Shown here: positions 116 to 15,844 of the stretch, in pieces
Layout: every line of letters begins with the position of its first letter
Position numbering within the stretch: the stretch's first letter is position 1
The notes under the pieces: generated by a model
Told to the model about the DNA's origin: nothing
Seen by the model: the letters and a program-made list of their open reading frames with translations, nothing else
Databases searched by the model: none
Assembly: GCA_043718025.1 (NCBI GenBank)
Contig: JAYSWN010000016.1
Coordinates: forward strand, 1-15,896
Direction of reading: 5' to 3'
Length of the DNA: 15,896 nt
Source: Pseudomonadota bacterium
Lineage (GTDB): Bacteria > Bdellovibrionota > FAC87 > UBA2466
Made by a program: the position numbers and the translations under genes

Positions 116-191
116 TAGATTTGTTTGTTTGTGAATTTTTGCGAGGGCTTAGAAAGACGGCGCAGCGTGCCTCTCTCTCCGCCATTCTTTT
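116..191 (+). repeat. 76-bp direct repeat, copy 1; contains tRNA-Ser-like 3' end CCTCTCTCTCCGCCA (170-184), putative att site
   Basis: Ungapped manual alignment to 1367-1442 gives 69/76 identity. TCTCTCC-G-CCA matches the acceptor 3' strand, G discriminator and CCA of bacterial tRNA-Ser. Confidence 0.85.
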
Positions 192-355
192 CATTTCAAT
201 TACGAGTTCCGGAACAAAACCGAAAGCAGTCGAAAAGTACCGAAACTGAAGAGGGACCCAGAAGAATTCATTCGAAAACAGCTAGAGTGTGATGCGGCTT
301 CGCCAGGATAACGGCCGAAGTTGCGTTCCCACGGCACACTGAGACGTCATCAAAC

Positions 356-721
356 TCAGGCCACCAGCTTAAATTCGATTTTTCCATAGTCGACCACCGG
401 CGTCTTAACGGTACGTCCGTTGATGACCGCCGATTTCAGTCGAATCGCACCCATTTCCTCGAGGAAAAGGATAATCTTATTCAGATTGGAAACATCCATA
501 TCCGTTCGTTTCGCGAGCTCGTATACCGACCTGGGCTTATGCTCTCTAATCGCGGACAAGATTGGGATGCTTTTGACGAACCGCTCAAAGTCCTTACGGC
601 TACCAAAAGAGATCTCGTAGTGAGGTTCCTTGAACTCTCTCCGTTTGACCTTCTTCAGTGCCTTTTTGAAGTCCTCTAGGACCTGCGACGAACTCTTTAT
701 TGAAACGATTAACTGCTTCAT
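356..721 (-). CDS. HTH antitoxin / transcriptional regulator (HVO_A0114/MarR-like wHTH, TumA-like), 121 aa
   Basis: KPRSVYELAKRTDMDVSNL...LEEMGAI helix-turn-helix and C-terminal KTPVVDYGKIEF typical of partners of DUF6516. ATGA overlap (718-721) with the upstream toxin. Confidence 0.8.
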   Translation of the reverse strand: MKQLIVSIKSSSQVLEDFKKALKKVKRREFKEPHYEISFGSRKDFERFVKSIPILSAIREHKPRSVYELAKRTDMDVSNLNKIILFLEEMGAIRLKSAVINGRTVKTPVVDYGKIEFKLVA

Positions 722-1008
722 ACGTTCACTCCCAAATGAATGAGAACCAATTCCTTAAAATCATCGACCAGCGGCTCCAGACCGCGAAAGTGGTACTCAC
801 TCTCCTGGTCATCGACATGTACGTGATGTCCTTTCGGATGATGGTTATCCATCAGCACGAATCGCCCCGTAAGTAGGCTCTTACATATCATGCGATACCT
901 TACCCCGTCGGGGTACTCAGCCGTAACCGCGACCTCGTGGGCCTTAAGTTCCAGTATGACGCCCTCGGGCCGGCGATCCTTATGCCAAAACATCAAGGTC
1001 GCCTTCAT
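718..1008 (-). CDS. DUF6516 (TumE-like) toxin, 96 aa
   Basis: Motifs YPDGVRYRM, MDNHHPKGHHVH and YHFRGLEPLVDDF match the DUF6516 pattern. Coupled to the HTH gene in toxin-first order. Confidence 0.8.
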   Translation of the reverse strand: MKATLMFWHKDRRPEGVILELKAHEVAVTAEYPDGVRYRMICKSLLTGRFVLMDNHHPKGHHVHVDDQESEYHFRGLEPLVDDFKELVLIHLGVNV

Positions 1009-1202
1009 ATTGGTCTAACCTTACCAATATTAGGCCGTTTCTGACAAGTCCGAGCCTTGGGCTGACTTAGACACCGATTAAACGCCGCCAGACTAGACGC
1101 AGGACCGCACCCAATGTCCTCCAACGCTTGCTTGGGATTGTGGATGACCTCCGCCATACAAAGCACGGCCATGAGGCCGCCAATCCATTCAAAGAGTTTC
1201 AC
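1005..1202 (-). CDS. Small hypothetical protein (65 aa, MKLFEWIGGLMAVLCMAEV...), hydrophobic N-terminus, 4 Cys
   Basis: GTG at 1202 is preceded by a GAAAGGA Shine-Dalgarno. The stop overlaps the toxin ATG (ATGA 1005-1008). No family recognised; may be a remnant. Confidence 0.45.
   Translation of the reverse strand: MKLFEWIGGLMAVLCMAEVIHNPKQALEDIGCGPASSLAAFNRCLSQPKARTCQKRPNIGKVRPI
1007..1047 (-). promoter_or_regulatory. Sigma70-type promoter (-35 TTGTCA 1047-1042; TGn -10 TAAGGT 1023-1018) overlapped by operator palindrome ATATTGGT-N8-ACCAATAT (1007-1030)
   Basis: Perfect 8-bp inverted repeat covering the -10 box and the toxin start codon; 18-bp spacer between boxes. TA operons are typically autorepressed this way. 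Confidence 0.6.
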
Positions 1203-1366
1203 GTGAGTTTCCTTTCGCCCGAAAGGGGCAAAGGTCATGAAAAGTTGGTAGGGCGGCAAGAAGACGTGGGGAGCGTGCGGCCCGCAGCTTTCCCGATCGG
1301 GACACGTCGCGGTGCTCAGCTCATTTCGATGCAGTTTCGTTCAGTCACGGGTCTTGAGTAACTCGT

Positions 1367-1442
1367 TAGATTTGTTCGTTTGTGAATTTTCACGACGGCT
1401 TAGAAAGATGGCGCAGCGCGCCTCTCTCTCAGCCATTCTTTT
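1367..1442 (+). repeat. 76-bp direct repeat, copy 2; tRNA-Ser-like 3' end CCTCTCTCTCAGCCA (1421-1435), putative att site
   Basis: 69/76 identical to 116-191. Flanked by inverted ACTCGTTA (1361-1368) / TAACGAGT (1457-1464). Confidence 0.85.
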
Positions 1443-1520
1443 TAATTTAAAAATAATAACGAGTGGGGAGCTAGGACTATTCAAGTTTAGGTGCCGAATA
1501 CTCGAGTGGTTGTGTCGATC

Positions 1521-2369
1521 TCATGTCTTGAGACGTTCTACGGAATCGAGAAAGAATTTCTCATTCCACAGTTCGAGTGTCTTTAAGTCTACGGGCCGTA
1601 GAAACCGCTGCACATCGGCTTTAGCTTTTTGCCAATCGATCTCTTTAATCCGGCTCGTTAGCTCCCCCTTGTACCAATCCATGTTGGCTTTGATCGCCTC
1701 GCCTTTCCACCGGCCGAACTGATCCAGAGCATTTGAAAGAAAGTTGAAGTTAGGAGTTACCTTCTTACTCACGTACCATAGAAAATCGAACCAATCGCGT
1801 CCCTTGACGTATTCACGACAAAGCAGGGCATGACTTTTTCCCGCGAAGAGGCTCGGAAGGTCATGCGCGGTGACCGAAAAGTTGATTGGGAAATCTAGAA
1901 ATTTAGTGTCTGTCTCGGCCCCCGCCGGAGGGTTTGTATCTACCTCCAATTTAATTTTCAGAGATCGCTTGGGACCATCAGCCTTCGGATAATTGACGTT
2001 TAGGAGACGTCCTAGTGAGTCATCCTTTAGAAAAGTATTTTGGACCGCATTTGCGGAGGACCGTGCTTCCACCTTAAGGTCATACCCGAAAGCTTTTAGC
2101 TCAGCGTTTAGGGAACCCAGATAGGAATTCAAGTCGAACTTTCTATCTACTTCAAGCAACGCAAAATCTAAGTCTTCAGAAAAACGCATTAAGCCGTGGA
2201 GGATTCGAAGCGCAGTGCCGCCTTGGAAGGCGGCCTTCTTGAAGAACCCTGCATTATACAGAGAGTTTAAGACGAGTTCTTGTGTAATTTCCTTGAGCGC
2301 GTAGTCCTCTTCTTGAGTGGATTGGCAATGGTAACTGTTTAACTTCTCCTGAATGATCTTCACGCTCAT
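1521..2369 (-). CDS. abiEii: AbiEii/AbiGii-family nucleotidyltransferase toxin (type IV TA), 282 aa
   Basis: FQGGTALR...RFSEDLDF NTase signature, IKLEVD, and KSHALLCR...KGRDWFD C-terminal motifs. Confidence 0.92.
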   Translation of the reverse strand: MSVKIIQEKLNSYHCQSTQEEDYALKEITQELVLNSLYNAGFFKKAAFQGGTALRILHGLMRFSEDLDFALLEVDRKFDLNSYLGSLNAELKAFGYDLKVEARSSANAVQNTFLKDDSLGRLLNVNYPKADGPKRSLKIKLEVDTNPPAGAETDTKFLDFPINFSVTAHDLPSLFAGKSHALLCREYVKGRDWFDFLWYVSKKVTPNFNFLSNALDQFGRWKGEAIKANMDWYKGELTSRIKEIDWQKAKADVQRFLRPVDLKTLELWNEKFFLDSVERLKT

Positions 2370-2995
2370 AGTTCAATTCCCTTTCTCAGAGCCCGTAAGA
2401 ATGTCTTTAGGCGCGTGCTTCGGTAGGTGTCTGCAATATCACTAAGGAGCTTGAAGGATAGTTGGCTCCAATAAGGTTCCTCGATTCTTAGTGATTCCAT
2501 CAATGCTTTTGGAGAGAGATCCATCTTGTGTGCAACAATATAATCCGCGAGCGCCTTTGTCGGGCTCGCGATTAAATACACGGTCTTTCCTTGTCGGTTA
2601 CGTTCCACACCAATGAAATTGAACTTGGGAATTCGCGTGTAACTGAAAATACCAACTGGTGTATCGAACGAGGCAGAACGCTTCAAACTCGCGCTTGTAA
2701 GCGTGTAAACCCCCTCCGGGATCCATCCATGGTGTGAGAGTGCGGATTCCAGGCTGACATAGGATGGGGCGTAGATTTTTTGGGCTAGTTCAAACCGATT
2801 TAGTGGCTCTCGCTGAAATCGCTTCCCGAGACTATAGACCCCTCTACGAAGCTGGATAAGGTCGCCATCTGCAATCGCTCTTTTCACGAGGCCATAGCGC
2901 CTGTTGGCCGTCCCCTCCAATAGGCTCACAACCTCAGTGTCCGTAAATACGTCTGTTGGAAGTGTTTCTCTAAGCTTTAGGGCTAATGTACTCAT
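2366..2995 (-). CDS. abiEi: AbiEi-family antitoxin / transcriptional regulator, 209 aa (start reassigned to ATG 2995)
   Basis: wHTH LIQLRRGVY, YVSLESALSHHGWIPE and ASPTKALAD motifs. ATGA overlap with abiEii. Confidence 0.88.
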   Translation of the reverse strand: MSTLALKLRETLPTDVFTDTEVVSLLEGTANRRYGLVKRAIADGDLIQLRRGVYSLGKRFQREPLNRFELAQKIYAPSYVSLESALSHHGWIPEGVYTLTSASLKRSASFDTPVGIFSYTRIPKFNFIGVERNRQGKTVYLIASPTKALADYIVAHKMDLSPKALMESLRIEEPYWSQLSFKLLSDIADTYRSTRLKTFLRALRKGIEL

Positions 2996-3011
2996 AAGTA
3001 TTTTTCTGCAT

Positions 3012-3100
3012 AATACTGTCAAATTATGACAGTATTTAGCTTAATAATCTACTTTATCTGAGAAAAATGCATGAAACTGTCATTTTACGACAGTTTCATG
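3012..3100. promoter_or_regulatory. Two AbiEi operator-like inverted repeats: AATACTGTCA-N5-TGACAGTATT (3012-3036) and CATGAAACTGTC-N7-GACAGTTTCATG (3070-3100)
   Basis: Both share ACTGTC-N7-GACAGT in the AT-rich region upstream of abiEi. AbiEi of S. agalactiae is known to autorepress via two inverted repeats. Confidence 0.8.
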
Positions 3101-3354
3101 TAAAAATACCTATTGTTTAATCATAGGCTATCTAACTATCTGTTTTTAATATTGAATTTGTAATCTGAGCGGAGGGTGTGCCTCCCGAAAATATCGATCT
3201 GACTGATTCGGCAGTCAGCTCCAAGCAACTGCGAGCGGGGGCAATCCGGTCAAATCGAAAACACAGTATGTCTGAATTATCGCCAATTCCTTTTTGTCGG
3301 TCCGGGGCCAAATCCCTTTTTGCGTCGCCTCTAACTGGAAACCAAGCTTTTCAG

Positions 3355-3374
3355 GAATCCGCACACTCGCACCA
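3355..3374 (+). other. tRNA-Leu-like 3' fragment GAATCCGCACACTCGCACCA, putative att remnant
   Basis: Parses as T-loop end GAAT, 5-nt T-stem CCGCA, 7-nt acceptor CACTCGC, A73 and CCA. No 5' half of a tRNA upstream. Followed by TTCTTT like the two Ser-like fragments. Confidence 0.55.
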
Positions 3375-3599
3375 TTCTTTGCGGGTCATTTTTTTCGATT
3401 CGTATGTTTCGAATCTTTAGCGTACCCACTCCCTCGATCCGTAGGCGAACCCCACTGGCACTGAAAAACACATTGCCTAATGTCTCATAAATAAGACGTT
3501 ACGAGCGTGTGGTACGAGTTGCTCCTCAGTGGCAAAAAGAGATCGGTGAGTTTCCTTATATGGACCCGCGGCGAGGTTGCCGACGCTGCGGAACCGAAG

Positions 3600-3725
3600 A
3601 TCCTAACTACAACAGACAATAAGGACTTTGAGACCTGCTTAATCTTGTCCCCCAAAAGGTGGACGTAGGTCATTGTGGTCGATAGGTCCTCATGCCACAA
3701 GATCTCACTCGCTGTCTTCACTGCC
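3600..3725 (-). pseudogene. C-terminal remnant of a tyrosine recombinase/integrase
   Basis: VKTASEILWHEDLSTTMTYVHLLGD matches box II (LLGH-x-D-x-x-TT-x-x-Y-x-H) including the catalytic Tyr, with G->W. The R and HxxR motifs are missing. End coordinates approximate. Confidence 0.75.
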
Positions 3726-4550
3726 TCTCTTCGCGAAAGACGGGATTGGGTGAACGTTTTATCGAGTGTGCAAGTGGTCGCTGAATTTGAGATCGATGGG
3801 CAGAAAATTACTGGTGTTCCCGTTGTGCAAAACGATTTTAATTTCGGTATCCGCACGTCGCAAATTCAAACATTTTCACTGCACCGGCTTAAAGCGGTAA
3901 CACCGCTTGGGCTCGAGGCGTCCGTCGACCGCAAACGCGACCCTAAACTTCTTGAAAGTGGCCGCCGGAAAAATTGGGATCATAGTTTTGTTAGCCAGAA
4001 AGAGTTTGTTGAAGGTACCCTGGGACTTCCTATCGAGGTCGAGATGAACGATGGAAGACGTTTTTTTGGGTTTGCCGGAAACGTTGATGAGCAGACTTGG
4101 ATGTTTCCTTTGACTCACCGTGGGGGCCTCGAACGAATTCGTTTGGCGGATATGAAATCAATTGGTTTGCAATCATCGGGACCAACTCGGATTGATCAAC
4201 TGGAATCTCTGCAGATTGTCCGTCCTCTAGTTCTCGACAGTGACTCAAAGGACGTTCGGCTAGAGAAACTGGCGGAAAGCCACGCGGAAGCCCGTCGAAT
4301 TCTTGACGCTATCGACCGCAATATTGAACAAGCGAATTGGTTTAGAAACTCAACAGTTATTGGTCAACTACGCCAAATGAACATTCGCGGCAAACAGATC
4401 ATTGCTGGCGTGAAGGTATACGGGAACGGCAATGTCCAAACGTTCATCGATGGTGTTTGGAACCAGGACCCCAAACTGGTCGAGACGATTAATAGCGCAA
4501 TGGATAAAGATTATCCTTACCGGTGCTGGCTTATGAAAGATGAACCTTAA
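3675..4550 (+). CDS. Hypothetical protein (~280-290 aa), start uncertain, probably 5'-truncated at the integrase remnant
   Basis: Long ORF with protein-like composition. The first ~17 codons are antisense to the integrase remnant and there is no clear RBS. Confidence 0.6.
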   Translation: MVDRSSCHKISLAVFTASLRERRDWVNVLSSVQVVAEFEIDGQKITGVPVVQNDFNFGIRTSQIQTFSLHRLKAVTPLGLEASVDRKRDPKLLESGRRKNWDHSFVSQKEFVEGTLGLPIEVEMNDGRRFFGFAGNVDEQTWMFPLTHRGGLERIRLADMKSIGLQSSGPTRIDQLESLQIVRPLVLDSDSKDVRLEKLAESHAEARRILDAIDRNIEQANWFRNSTVIGQLRQMNIRGKQIIAGVKVYGNGNVQTFIDGVWNQDPKLVETINSAMDKDYPYRCWLMKDEP

Positions 4551-4799
4551 GTTTCAACGCCCCCCAGTAACTTGCCAAAGCAGAAAGCTAAAGGAGTCTC
4601 ACCGTGTTGTGTTGAGATGTGGTGCGATAAGCAGGGGGAAGATCGGCTTGTTATTCATTGGTCGCTGACCAATTCCTGACCACGTCTCCCCAGAAAACCC
4701 CGTAATAGACGGTAGTTGAAAGGTGACAAAAATTGCAGTCTTACGGTGCAAACGCATTTCGTTTATATTGCGCTCCCAAGCCATTTTAAGGAGTTTTGC

Positions 4800-5294
4800 A
4801 TGAACTTTCTCTCGAAGTCGCGTTTTGCCCTAGTTTTGATTTTAGGCTTATTCCTCAGCGGATCCGGCTTCGCTGACGACAAAAAAGCCGAAACATTTTT
4901 CATGGCCTACGCGCCGAAGACAAATGGAGCAAAACTTTACTATCGAGGGTTGAAGACCAGCGTGAAGAAGGGGGACGCTGAGTACCGCGCGATTTTGGGC
5001 AAGCTGCACCTCGCGGCTGAACAAGCGGTTAAAGACGCTGAGGAGGCGGACAAGGCCGAAATCCAAAAAGACGCCAACGTAGCGATTGAAATTTGGTCGT
5101 TCAAGTACGGACGGGACACGGATACGAAAGCTGCAGCCGCCGCGAACATCATTCGAATCCTAAAAGGGTTCAAAGGCGAAAAAGACGAGGCAAAACCTGT
5201 GATCGCCATTCGCGGGTTCCGAGCTGCGATGAACGACCAGCCCAAAGATTTGCCCGTCGGTTTGGCTGACATGTTCACCGGTAAATCAGAATAA
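4800..5294 (+). CDS. Secreted hypothetical protein, 164 aa
   Basis: AAGGAG RBS before ATG 4800; signal peptide MNFLSKSRFALVLILGLFLSGSGFA. Confidence 0.75.
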   Translation: MNFLSKSRFALVLILGLFLSGSGFADDKKAETFFMAYAPKTNGAKLYYRGLKTSVKKGDAEYRAILGKLHLAAEQAVKDAEEADKAEIQKDANVAIEIWSFKYGRDTDTKAAAAANIIRILKGFKGEKDEAKPVIAIRGFRAAMNDQPKDLPVGLADMFTGKSE

Positions 5295-5377
5295 GGTTTT
5301 ACCGTTAATTATTTCAGTCTGGCGTATTAGCAATGTCTCGCGCCCCCAAACCCATCAAACGACATGACCTTGTTTTC

Positions 5378-5434
5378 AAGAAACGTATCCTTTACGAATT
5401 AAGGCGACATTTTCCCTTAGTAGGTAACGGATAC
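5378..5434. repeat. 57-bp hairpin repeat, copy 1 (possible bidirectional terminator or REP-like element)
   Basis: 56/57 identical to 15788-15844. Outer arms GTATCC(T)TTAC / GTAACGGATAC, inner TAAGG/CCTTA; followed by T6. Lies between convergent genes. Confidence 0.85.
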
Positions 5435-10575: not shown

Positions 10576-11355
10576 TTAAATTCGATTCTCGCTTTCGACG
10601 TTTTTCTTTTTCAAAAAATTATTAAGCATCTTATGCTGGCGCTCCCCCACTGTCGCATCGATCGCCTCCTTTTGCTCCGGAAACAGATCGTACAGGTAAT
10701 ACTTCATCGACTTCACCATCTCGTACTCGACATTCTCATCCATGCCCTTCGCTACAGATTGGATTTCGGGCTTCATGTCTTTGTTCTTGACGTGAATGCG
10801 GCGAGGACCTTCAAGCGGGGAGGTCTCGTCGAGAAGTTTTCCTTCTTCAGCCACGGCCTTAGGATTCTCAACGCTGATGCCAGCATTGGTGATCAAGATT
10901 TTGAAAAGCTCTTTGCCCTGGTCATCGAAAATCGTACGCTCCTGGAACAATTCGCCGCCCAGCCCGCCCAACCAAATGTTCGGCTTGCCATCTGCGCCAA
11001 GTACATACGTCGGATGCACTACCCGTCCTTGTTTCAGGAGCGCCTTATCCACCGCTTCCACGCGCTTGGTCATCGCTCCCATATCGGTCGACGAAACTTC
11101 CGGTAAAAACCTTTTTTTCTGTTCGTCGCTCATATACCCGTAGAGCGATTCGGCGAATTCTTCCGCCCGCTTCGTTTGCCCTTCCCACTGCTTACGGAAT
11201 TGCAGTTCAATTTCAAATTTCGCAGCTTCAAGACCCAACATTTTCAATGTCACCTTGGCGTCGGGGCGTTTTAACCTCACATCAGGCTCTCCGTGGTTGT
11301 CAGCGAGCGAAATGAGGCAAGTAAACGCGATTAAGGCAAAAATAAACTCTTTCAT
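10576..11355 (-). CDS. Secreted hypothetical protein, 259 aa
   Basis: Long ORF with signal peptide MKEFIFALIAFTCLISLA; no family recognised. Confidence 0.75.
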   Translation of the reverse strand: MKEFIFALIAFTCLISLADNHGEPDVRLKRPDAKVTLKMLGLEAAKFEIELQFRKQWEGQTKRAEEFAESLYGYMSDEQKKRFLPEVSSTDMGAMTKRVEAVDKALLKQGRVVHPTYVLGADGKPNIWLGGLGGELFQERTIFDDQGKELFKILITNAGISVENPKAVAEEGKLLDETSPLEGPRRIHVKNKDMKPEIQSVAKGMDENVEYEMVKSMKYYLYDLFPEQKEAIDATVGERQHKMLNNFLKKKNVESENRI

Positions 11356-11383: not shown

Positions 11384-11543
11384 GCCCCGCAAGCCTGCGC
11401 GCACCATCTGGATACGACTAAAAACTGGGCGCCCGCAATGATAACGACAGGCCCGGCACGTTGGGAGGACTCTGGAGCTTCTCGCTCATAGCCGAGAGGA
11501 CTTACTAGCTACCAAACTCTACGCCTTCTATTACGAAGCAAGC

Positions 11544-14741: not shown

Positions 14742-15788
14742 ATGTCCACTTTGATCAAGTTACTTTGGCTTACCTTGTCGTGCCTTATCCCTACTGCCCG
14801 GTCGGCCGATATTTTTATTTTGGGGGAGGATCACGTAAAGGATGCCCAGAAGCGGAATCAAGTCTACCGCGCGATGGAAAAGGGAACCGTCTCCATCGCC
14901 CAAGAAGGACTTAAATTCGAAGGCAATGATCCTATTGCCCGTGCGTTACTTAAAAATTATCTCCTCGATCCGAACAAATCGACGTCGGTGTACGGGATCG
15001 AAAACGAGTCCGCCATTTTAAGTCGTGTGATTCTCCATTTCAGAACGGACATTCTCCGTTCCTTATTAAACAAAGAAAAAGGGCCATCGAGAAAAAACCT
15101 AGTGCGCAATTTATTCACCGCCTTAATAGATTATCCGTCCGTGGGAGAGGTGCTAACTAGGCTTTCGAAAGAGAGCAAAGTCTTTGAGGGTGAGGCTCAC
15201 GCCGCCTGGGTCAAGTCATTTGGGAAAGAGTGGCATTATGGGCCATACGCCGAAGCGGTGAAACGACTTATCAACAGACTTCTCCAACTTCCCAAAACCC
15301 CAGACGCCCAGACTTTGTTTATGGGCGCCTTCGCCAAAAAAGACAAAGTTGCGCTGAATAAATGGAACCTCCTAGTGGATGCTCTGACGACAGACGAACA
15401 GCTAATTTGCCTGATGAGCCTGGCCGCGGAGCTGCACAAGGGTTTAGCCAAATATTTTCTTGAAACCAAAATTATTGCCGCCGATTCCATTCCGCCTGAA
15501 CTGATAGCGGCAATCGACGCCAATTTTTTTTTGAAAAACCTGCCGCAGAGCGAAGTCGGCCTGGAGTATCAACGAAAAGTAATCCTTGAATACCGCAATG
15601 AAGTTTTTGCGGACAACCTAATGAAGGTCATTGAGAACAAGTGGAAGAACCGCAGGTTCCCCCTCGTCGTAATCGTAGGGAGTCTCCATTCCGACGGGCT
15701 GGCGAAGCTTCTCCAGGACAAACTGAAAGGGAAGGACATCAAGATTGCAAAAGAGGACCTAGCCCACTGGGTGCCACCCGCCAATTGA
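14742..15788 (+). CDS. Secreted protein with EreA/ChaN/TIKI(TraB)-superfamily motif pattern, 348 aa
   Basis: Signal peptide, then ILGEDH, IAQEG, YGIEN, YRNEVFADNL and VIVGSLH in the order typical of that fold. Confidence 0.65.
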   Translation: MSTLIKLLWLTLSCLIPTARSADIFILGEDHVKDAQKRNQVYRAMEKGTVSIAQEGLKFEGNDPIARALLKNYLLDPNKSTSVYGIENESAILSRVILHFRTDILRSLLNKEKGPSRKNLVRNLFTALIDYPSVGEVLTRLSKESKVFEGEAHAAWVKSFGKEWHYGPYAEAVKRLINRLLQLPKTPDAQTLFMGAFAKKDKVALNKWNLLVDALTTDEQLICLMSLAAELHKGLAKYFLETKIIAADSIPPELIAAIDANFFLKNLPQSEVGLEYQRKVILEYRNEVFADNLMKVIENKWKNRRFPLVVIVGSLHSDGLAKLLQDKLKGKDIKIAKEDLAHWVPPAN

Positions 15789-15844
15789 AGAAACGTATCC
15801 GTTACGAATTAAGGCGACATTTTCCCTTAGTAGGTAACGGATAC
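15788..15844. repeat. 57-bp hairpin repeat, copy 2
   Basis: Perfect 11-bp arms GTATCCGTTAC/GTAACGGATAC around a 28-nt spacer; begins at the stop codon of the upstream CDS. Confidence 0.85.

Follow-up and report, generated by a model that had tools for sequence, protein, structure and literature searches.

The window analysed here is the whole of contig JAYSWN010000016.1 (15,896 nt), which is the entire contig C58 of the host genome G000, a bacterium of the Bdellovibrionota lineage (GCA_043718025.1; a bin of 4.14 Mb in 234 contigs, 92% complete with 4.7% contamination). Its region 116–4720 is probably what remains, after decay, of small integrative elements that were stacked at the tRNA-Ser(GGA) site. 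A preliminary description of positions 116–3725 had proposed an integron-like defence array, in which toxin–antitoxin (TA) cassettes without integrases lie between three tRNA 3′-end fragments and are mobilized in trans. By comparing sequences, we have established the identity of the cores, arms and gene families in this region as well as the mosaic origin of its pieces, and these carry the reading given above.

tRNA-Ser cores and their arms

The key feature of the region is a direct repeat of 84 nt (116–199 and 1367–1450), the copies of which are 88% identical and spaced by 1251 nt. Each copy contains a displaced 3′ end of tRNA-Ser(GGA) on the + strand, here called a core. Core 1 (170–184) agrees with the end of the host tRNA at 15 of 15 positions and core 2 (1421–1435) at 14 of 15, with one mismatch. 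The intact tRNA-Ser(GGA), for which a search had been suggested, is present on contig C128 at c[141,230], 140 bp from the contig end. The bases that follow the cores also resemble the DNA downstream of this gene: core 2 with the bases after it matches the tRNA end and its present downstream DNA over 43 nt at 93% (E = 7e-10), and 171–199 is 93% identical to C128 154–126. The segments 185–201 and 1436–1464 (both +) are short left-arm stubs of this host type, the second being 93% identical to C128 over 29 nt and cut before the CCTGGCCA repeats. Behind both cores, the resemblance to the arm of the host tRNA ends within 30 nt, before the CCTGGCCA repeats. In front of core 1, the segment 116–169 (+), 88% identical to 1367–1420 in the arm alignment, is a right arm in truncated form; the upstream element to which it belongs is called unit 0. 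Throughout the host genome, displaced tails of its own tRNAs amount to 14 perfect 14-mers, compared with 3 for reversed controls. The assignment of 170–184 and 1421–1435 as attachment (att)-derived tRNA-Ser ends is supported by these matches. Tyrosine integrases would have inserted related elements successively at the tRNA-Ser core, each leaving its right arm and a copy of the core, and such insertions would explain why two arm-and-core blocks with 88% identity are found.

The pattern of the 84-mer has no match in metagenome contigs, and a shorter arm pattern gave 38 loci, comprising one true homologue (L158) and 37 chance matches. The arm pattern in genome contigs returned two records with arms already seen, which are given no separate count, and the arm search in phages gave no match. 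Family matches to the Ser core inside unrelated sequence were excluded as att sites.

Local duplication or mis-assembly of the metagenome bin could also produce such repeats, and we regard this as highly improbable. The contig does begin in a repeat: the assembly break at the window start coincides with a genome-wide, palindromic REP/MITE-like repeat (1–55, no strand assigned) with ~40 BLAST matches on many contigs, and the bin is contaminated to the extent given above. However, independently built unitigs cover 23–1184 and 1155–5421 at even depth in two possible source runs, homologues of the arm and core occur with other cargo in other genomes, and the two intervals have no common sequence outside the 84-mer. 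The two runs that contain the window DNA in full are sediment metagenomes.

The preliminary description had counted three tRNA 3′-end fragments with a common continuation. CCATTCTTT does continue all three sites (170–184, 1421–1435 and 3355–3374; spacings of 1251 and 1939 nt), and cores 1 and 2 stand as ends of the host tRNA-Ser(GGA); however, the Leu-like third fragment, site 3 (3355–3374, +), does not belong to the same att system. Site 3 is a tRNA-tail-shaped 20-mer with no matching tRNA, which would be a foreign att core or a chance occurrence. The best fit among host tRNAs is Leu(GAG), with 14 of 20 positions and 9 contiguous ones. Allowing up to three mismatches, the pattern occurs at four places in 301 genomes, none of them inside an ARAGORN tRNA; the matches in G047 and on host contig C187 are not tRNAs, and the match in G013 falls inside abiEi. 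We therefore reject, for now, the assignment of site 3 as a tRNA-Leu end of the host or its phylum. Site 3 also has no arm in common with cores 1 and 2, and it is outside the Ser set. The chance expectation in the host genome, per strand of 3.6 kb, is 0.26 for the generic tail motif and 0.03 for CCATTCTTT. The best nucleotide match of site 3 is an inverted one, 20 of 22 positions between 3354–3375 and 2729–2750 in abiEi; within the locus, this match has E = 0.009. An origin from abiEi as a conserved antisense copy was rejected, since the AbiE loci of four relatives have no inverted copy. One point for a foreign att core is that a TA promoter with a toxin stump starts 90 bp behind the site. This segment (3464–3543, +) comprises the promoter/operator and 5′ stump of a third TA toxin, RelE/HigB-like by eye, and matches at 78% the start of a TA operon in the congener G001. 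The G001 operon, with an HTH_37 partner, lies 103 bp behind tRNA-Ser(GGA).

Toxin–antitoxin cargo and foreign pieces

Unit 1, which lies between cores 1 and 2, carries a TumE-family pair on the − strand, composed of a TumE/DUF6516 toxin gene (718–1008, 96 aa) and a gene for an antitoxin-like winged helix–turn–helix (wHTH) protein (356–721, 121 aa; HVO_A0114, PF25212, E = 1.2e-10). A direct Pfam scan of the 96-aa toxin gave no match; its PF20126 label is the one precomputed by the database for the protein and for many of its 64 homologues. The DUF6516 toxin and its DNA-binding partner form a two-gene operon, the pair is kept in L008, L010, L012 and L014, and an inverted repeat overlapping the tumE start (1008–1029, no strand assigned) is the likely operator. 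The homologous TumE pair at L010 (1054–1815, genome G033) has an intact tRNA-Ala(GGC) as its neighbour and ends 36 bp behind it.

The TumE pair is accompanied by a small open reading frame (ORF) of 65 aa with a hydrophobic N-terminus (1005–1202, −), the product of which could be a small membrane peptide. This ORF is kept in relatives and marks the right end of the element family: the equivalent ORFs in L158, L016 and L015, which occupy the same position, are 75, 48 and 48% identical to it, respectively. No Atlas match and no family were found for it. ORFs of this kind lie at the right end of Ser or Asp elements in four sources. The right arm of unit 1 (1203–1420, +) follows, with homologous arms before the Ser cores in L016 and L158 and before the Asp core in L015, and contains a TCCCGATCGGGAC arm-type site at 1289–1303. 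According to the motif count, unit 1 has arm sites on its right side only, and 1436–3374 has none. Elsewhere, the part of unit 1 that is found again as a block is limited to its right 750 bp; L158 contains the TumE pair, the 65-aa ORF, the arm and the Ser core at 73% identity over 746 nt. The flank of this block differs from the window, and its contig begins inside the antitoxin gene, leaving the left end outside the contig. Arms of the unit 1 type are also found in G010, before a Ser core accompanied by another type IV-like TA, and in G007, before an Asp core that ends a 7.7-kb unit.

Interval 2 contains the AbiE operon that had been noted in the preliminary description, confirmed by Pfam, NCBIfam and PADLOC. 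The abiEii gene (1521–2369, −) encodes an intact nucleotidyltransferase toxin of 282 aa (Pfam AbiEii, E = 4.7e-30; PADLOC, E = 2.2e-101), and the abiEi antitoxin ORF (2366–3022, −; NCBIfam TAA_AbiEi, E = 3.3e-10; PADLOC, E = 1.6e-56) has its likely ATG start near 2995. Two palindromes (3012–3036 and 3070–3100, no strand assigned), which are kept upstream of the abiEi homologues in L004–L007, are the likely AbiEi operator and complete the arrangement typical of AbiE, an abiEi–abiEii operon with upstream inverted repeats. The closest abiEii homologues (G010, G013, G022 and G014) have no adjoining Ser(GGA) core. In runs X3 and X4, the junction between an AbiE copy of ~97–98% identity and other DNA falls at 1452, which is 17 nt beyond the CCA; at this level of identity, unit 1 has no coverage. 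Judging from these junctions and loci, AbiE travels without the cores.

Each interval had been described as carrying exactly one self-contained TA operon. A TA pair with an operator is indeed present in each; however, both hold additional content, namely the 65-aa ORF and a foreign arm piece in interval 1 and the end of an insertion sequence (IS) in interval 2. The foreign arm piece (202–258, +) comes from a tRNA-Met-targeting element; it is 86–93% identical to the arms that lie in front of tRNA-Met cores in G042, G044 and G011, lacks its two ATGTCGCAC arm repeats and is cut just after them. The likely IS terminal remnant (3177–3207, +) is 90–96% identical to DNA that immediately precedes rve_3 transposase ORFs in G016 and G042. 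At the left end, a piece of a gene for a heavy-metal P-type ATPase (RANVSPDEKIAV; 64–116, +) is fused to the unit 0 arm, and its positions 80–116 are 95% identical to an internal stretch of a 799-aa E1-E2 ATPase gene in G042. At the right end, 4665–4723 (+) is a coreless right-arm remnant of the Ser element family found on host contig C140, with 84–88% identity to the three arms there.

The integrase remnant that had been reported behind site 3 is real. It comprises the 38 C-terminal codons of a tyrosine integrase (3626–3739, −; NCBIfam, E = 7e-5), 27 of which (71%) are identical to residues 348–385 of a 403-aa PF00589 integrase beside tRNA-Met in G011; against TIGR02249, it scores 22 bits at a cut-off of 265. 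However, it cannot be attributed to the Ser cores, since its family sits at tRNA-Met. From these alignments, the units combine pieces from at least four element types and show no matched left and right arms. Deletions and IS activity may have removed the integrases, most of the cargo and the left arms, and may have fused in the Met-targeting and other pieces. The TA pairs would persist by addiction, as a cell that lost one of these autoregulated pairs would probably die or stop growing; AbiE may add abortive-infection defence.

Several other features of the window lie beside or outside this region. The 291-aa ORF at 3675–4550 (+), which overlaps the integrase remnant on the opposite strand, has no homologue among 1404 candidates. 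The segment 4722–4787, possibly one more arm remnant, is 80% identical to C63 22533–22598, a stretch that precedes a displaced tRNA-Leu(TAA)-like tail by ~400 bp. A 60-bp palindromic repeat (5375–5434 and 15785–15844, 97% identical), with related copies on C142, flanks a 10.4-kb block containing an RND heavy-metal-type efflux system and a helicase. The 58 nt at 11472–11529 are 95% identical to a DUF6036 toxin-like gene in the C140 array. ARAGORN and Rfam detected no RNA gene in the window, the promoter scan of the window gave signal at chance level, and the listed runs matching window DNA include no RNA dataset.

Related arrays in the host and its relatives

Further core copies and an intact integrase, both of which the preliminary description had proposed to look for, occur together on contig C140 of the host. 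Three Ser cores are spaced by 2019 and 3149 nt, and each lies behind its own 150-nt arm, the different arms being 82–89% alike. The intervals contain a leucine-rich repeat (LRR) gene in one case and RelE/HigA, DUF6973 and a 406-aa protein in the other, with a DUF6036/HTH pair upstream. The 406-aa protein has no Pfam integrase match; its Atlas neighbours are PF00589 proteins at 0.97–0.98. It has 309 homologues, some of which are named site-specific integrase, with matches in 71 of 401 genomes, and among 20 fetched loci these homologues often lie directly behind tRNA-Ser(GCT), -Asp, -Glu, tmRNA or fragments of them. The protein is an intact, divergent tyrosine-integrase-like protein in which, by eye, YxGR replaces HxxR. 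This second Ser-core array (L001, 3834–10600), with three 160-nt arm-and-core repeats and no intact tRNA adjoining, is bracketed by a 26-bp perfect direct repeat (139–164 and 10916–10941) in the opposite orientation, which resembles a degenerate tRNA-Asp-type tail.

An intact integrase adjoining a Ser core bears on a different reading, in which unit 1 alone (185–1435) is a non-autonomous mini-island that still works and could be excised in trans by a Ser-targeting integrase, while the rest is debris. Unit 1 lies between two near-perfect cores, its full right arm, small ORF and TA genes are kept as a block in L158, and the integrase family of C140 seems to need little left arm. However, the right arm of unit 1 has TCGGGAC-type sites, as opposed to the CCTGGCCA type in the C140 arms, and searches of the host genome, 92% complete, with five queries and PF00589 revealed no integrase connected with TCGGGAC arms. 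In addition, the TCGGGAC-type left arm that follows the core in L016 is absent from 185–355, and core 2 carries its mismatch. We consider a working mini-island here unlikely. The contigs of four runs contain no joint at the cores, which is not evidence against excision because contigs drop rare forms.

Some points weigh against reading 116–4720 as a decayed residue. First, the C140 unit with the intact integrase also has a short left end without CCTGGCCA repeats; thus, a short stub may suffice as the left site, and the term truncated may overstate the damage. Second, the near-intact state of the TA operons and cores may reflect selection on the units. Third, relatives have clean integrase-less units with a common TA backbone and swapped cargo. 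Lastly, C58 and the tRNA contig are not joined in the assembly. If the region is a residue of stacked elements, the block would lie farther along the same array or would have been relocated by a rearrangement. The prediction for the units is that they are fixed or, like cis-mobilizable elements (CIMEs), can move only when an intact element next to them carries them along.

The cargo between cores was tabulated for 23 hand-picked intervals, found via the window arms or the 406-aa integrase and thus not random, one of which has a partial arm for its left core and another a degenerate right core. An integrase match is present in 8 of the 23 and, with five queries, in none of the other 15 (0.5–7.7 kb). 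TA pairs occur in seven of these 15 integrase-less intervals (two with a broken toxin, one of those by eye) and in two of the eight with an integrase. Among the remaining integrase-less intervals, one has a lone Fic gene, and seven have neither a TA pair nor Fic, containing LRR, LysR, oxidoreductase or arsenic-resistance genes or no genes. The ORF scan behind these counts took in 52 of 97 listed ORFs and 10 others, with the C140 ORFs scanned separately, so some TA genes may have been missed. Going by these counts, the cargo in the family is not confined to defence.

Tandem integrase-less units, often with TA pairs, are found in relatives at tRNA-Ser, -Met, -Asp and tmRNA, and the tandem arrays at tRNA-Asp, -Met and tmRNA combine units with and without an integrase. 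For example, tRNA-Ser(GGA) in G001 is followed by a 2.4-kb integrase-less unit and a displaced core; in G001 and G007, a single replicon carries the intact tRNA and, downstream of it in the same orientation, the tRNA fragments. Three Met units in relatives have arm repeats at both ends, as opposed to neither interval of the window. The Met units of G042 and G044 have a common left block of 836 nt with arm and RelE/HTH genes (86%) and a common right arm (81%), and their cargo differs. Tandem integrase-less tRNA-Met units with ATGTCGCAC repeats at both ends are located at L089 3554–6021, L090 5530–8105 and L091 5371–10984. On host contig C24 (L027, 117–7963), there are three tRNA-Asp cores, and two units start with near-duplicate Gp49/HTH TA pairs. 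A 5.9-kb integrase-less unit between Asp cores in G007 (L019, 2886–8795) combines a Gp49/HTH TA pair with a candidate defence system of three TIR/ThsB-like genes, SLATT and MAP3K_TRAF_bd/TPR-S genes.

These arrays are also the ground on which the integron-like proposal, TA cassettes captured and shuffled in trans between tRNA att sites, can be weighed. TA pairs are present in both window intervals and in the seven integrase-less intervals of relatives, one G007 unit holds TIR/ThsB and SLATT genes, and the G042 and G044 Met units show different cargo between common ends. However, site 3 is not cognate, the integrase remnant is from another family, the AbiE operons of relatives are not bounded by cores, and as many integrase-less intervals lack TA and Fic genes as have a TA pair. 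Moreover, the array head has no platform integrase or common promoter, and each TA pair has its own operator. For the window itself, we judge the integron-like array to be very unlikely; the supported part of the proposal is the att origin of the Ser ends, in view of the host tRNA, the three C140 cores and the tandem integrase-less units in relatives.

For the wider family, the proposal may still hold, given the cleaner integrase-less units of 1–2.5 kb with swapped cargo in relatives. Tentatively, and with more doubt than confidence, this lineage could run a family of non-autonomous 1–2.5 kb mini-islands at tRNA-Ser, -Met and -Asp that small integrase elements move in trans. Each would have two cognate att arms, a TA backbone at one end and one swappable cargo slot, and one of the integrase elements would be from a lineage-wide integrase family that Pfam misses; unit 1, with its conserved 65-aa ORF, would be a member, and the array a tRNA-anchored cassette store. 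The G042 and G044 Met units are the best support for such cassettes, but they involve other tRNAs and other genomes. Thus, the most promising material lies outside the window, in these two-armed units with swapped cargo and in the C140 array with its intact divergent integrase, which make the trans-mobilization of 1–2 kb TA units directly testable.

Comparison with known systems

Integrons consist of an IntI integrase, an attI site, a Pc promoter and cassettes separated by attC hairpin sites. The window resembles them in being an array of small units, some with self-promoted TA pairs. However, the repeats found in it are tRNA-end cores with long arms instead of attC hairpins, and it has neither IntI nor a platform.

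Closer counterparts are found among tandem genomic islands. In streptococci, the cited passages describe tandem accretion of integrative conjugative and integrative mobilizable elements that includes integrase-less CIMEs (PMC5704250). Like these, the window has elements in tandem at a single tRNA att site, members left without an integrase by decay and chimeric junctions between unrelated elements, and the ORFs of both intervals include no integration or transfer genes, as in a CIME. On the other hand, CIMEs as defined there keep attL and attR, whereas in the window the cores are kept, the cognate arm motif is on the right side only and the left ends look truncated or foreign; conjugation genes are also absent from the window (PMC5704250). 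The ssrA islands of Dehalococcoides, according to the account consulted, form a tandem stack bounded by short repeats of the tRNA-gene 3′ end with conserved adjacent sequence, and many members have no integration module (PMC3146451). They differ in using a serine integrase and tmRNA and in carrying rdhA cargo, in place of the tyrosine integrases, tRNA-Ser(GGA), TA cargo and smaller units considered here (PMC3146451). Since tandem accretion with integrase-less members is already described for CIMEs and ssrA islands, an integron-like mechanism is not needed. The tycheposons and tRNA-seeded islands of Prochlorococcus, as partly outlined in their report, likewise show tandem accretion with integrase-less members and have only partial tRNA copies between elements, with fragmented integrases and extra partial tRNAs, but the window has no replication module (10.1101/2020.12.28.424599).

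The TA systems also have known counterparts. AbiE is a type IV TA system with inverted repeats in its promoter, for which stabilization of plasmids or mobile DNA and phage resistance are reported in the cited text (PMC3985639); the window has the same bicistronic operon with promoter inverted repeats, known here from the genes. Similarly, HipAB is reported to stabilize a composite island, in the portion cited (PMC8978831). TumE of the TumE–TumA system is a validated translation-inhibiting toxin, as the relevant part of that study states (PMC10584680). The window pair, also recognized by its genes, is bicistronic as well; it differs in its partner, an HVO_A0114 wHTH protein whose gene lies downstream of that for the toxin.

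Among the matches listed, we found no publication on such arrays in this lineage. The Islander survey of tDNA arrays, in the section cited, calls a tandem only if every member has its own integrase (PMC4383910), and the window has only the 38-codon remnant from another family; island finders with this one-integrase-per-unit rule would miss units of the window type. In summary, the region is likely a known kind of genome scar and not a new integron-like system. It would represent what the accretion and decay of islands ordinarily produce, in a lineage that has been little studied, indicating that a TA-rich 'defence island' can arise as a residue, without a cassette machine.

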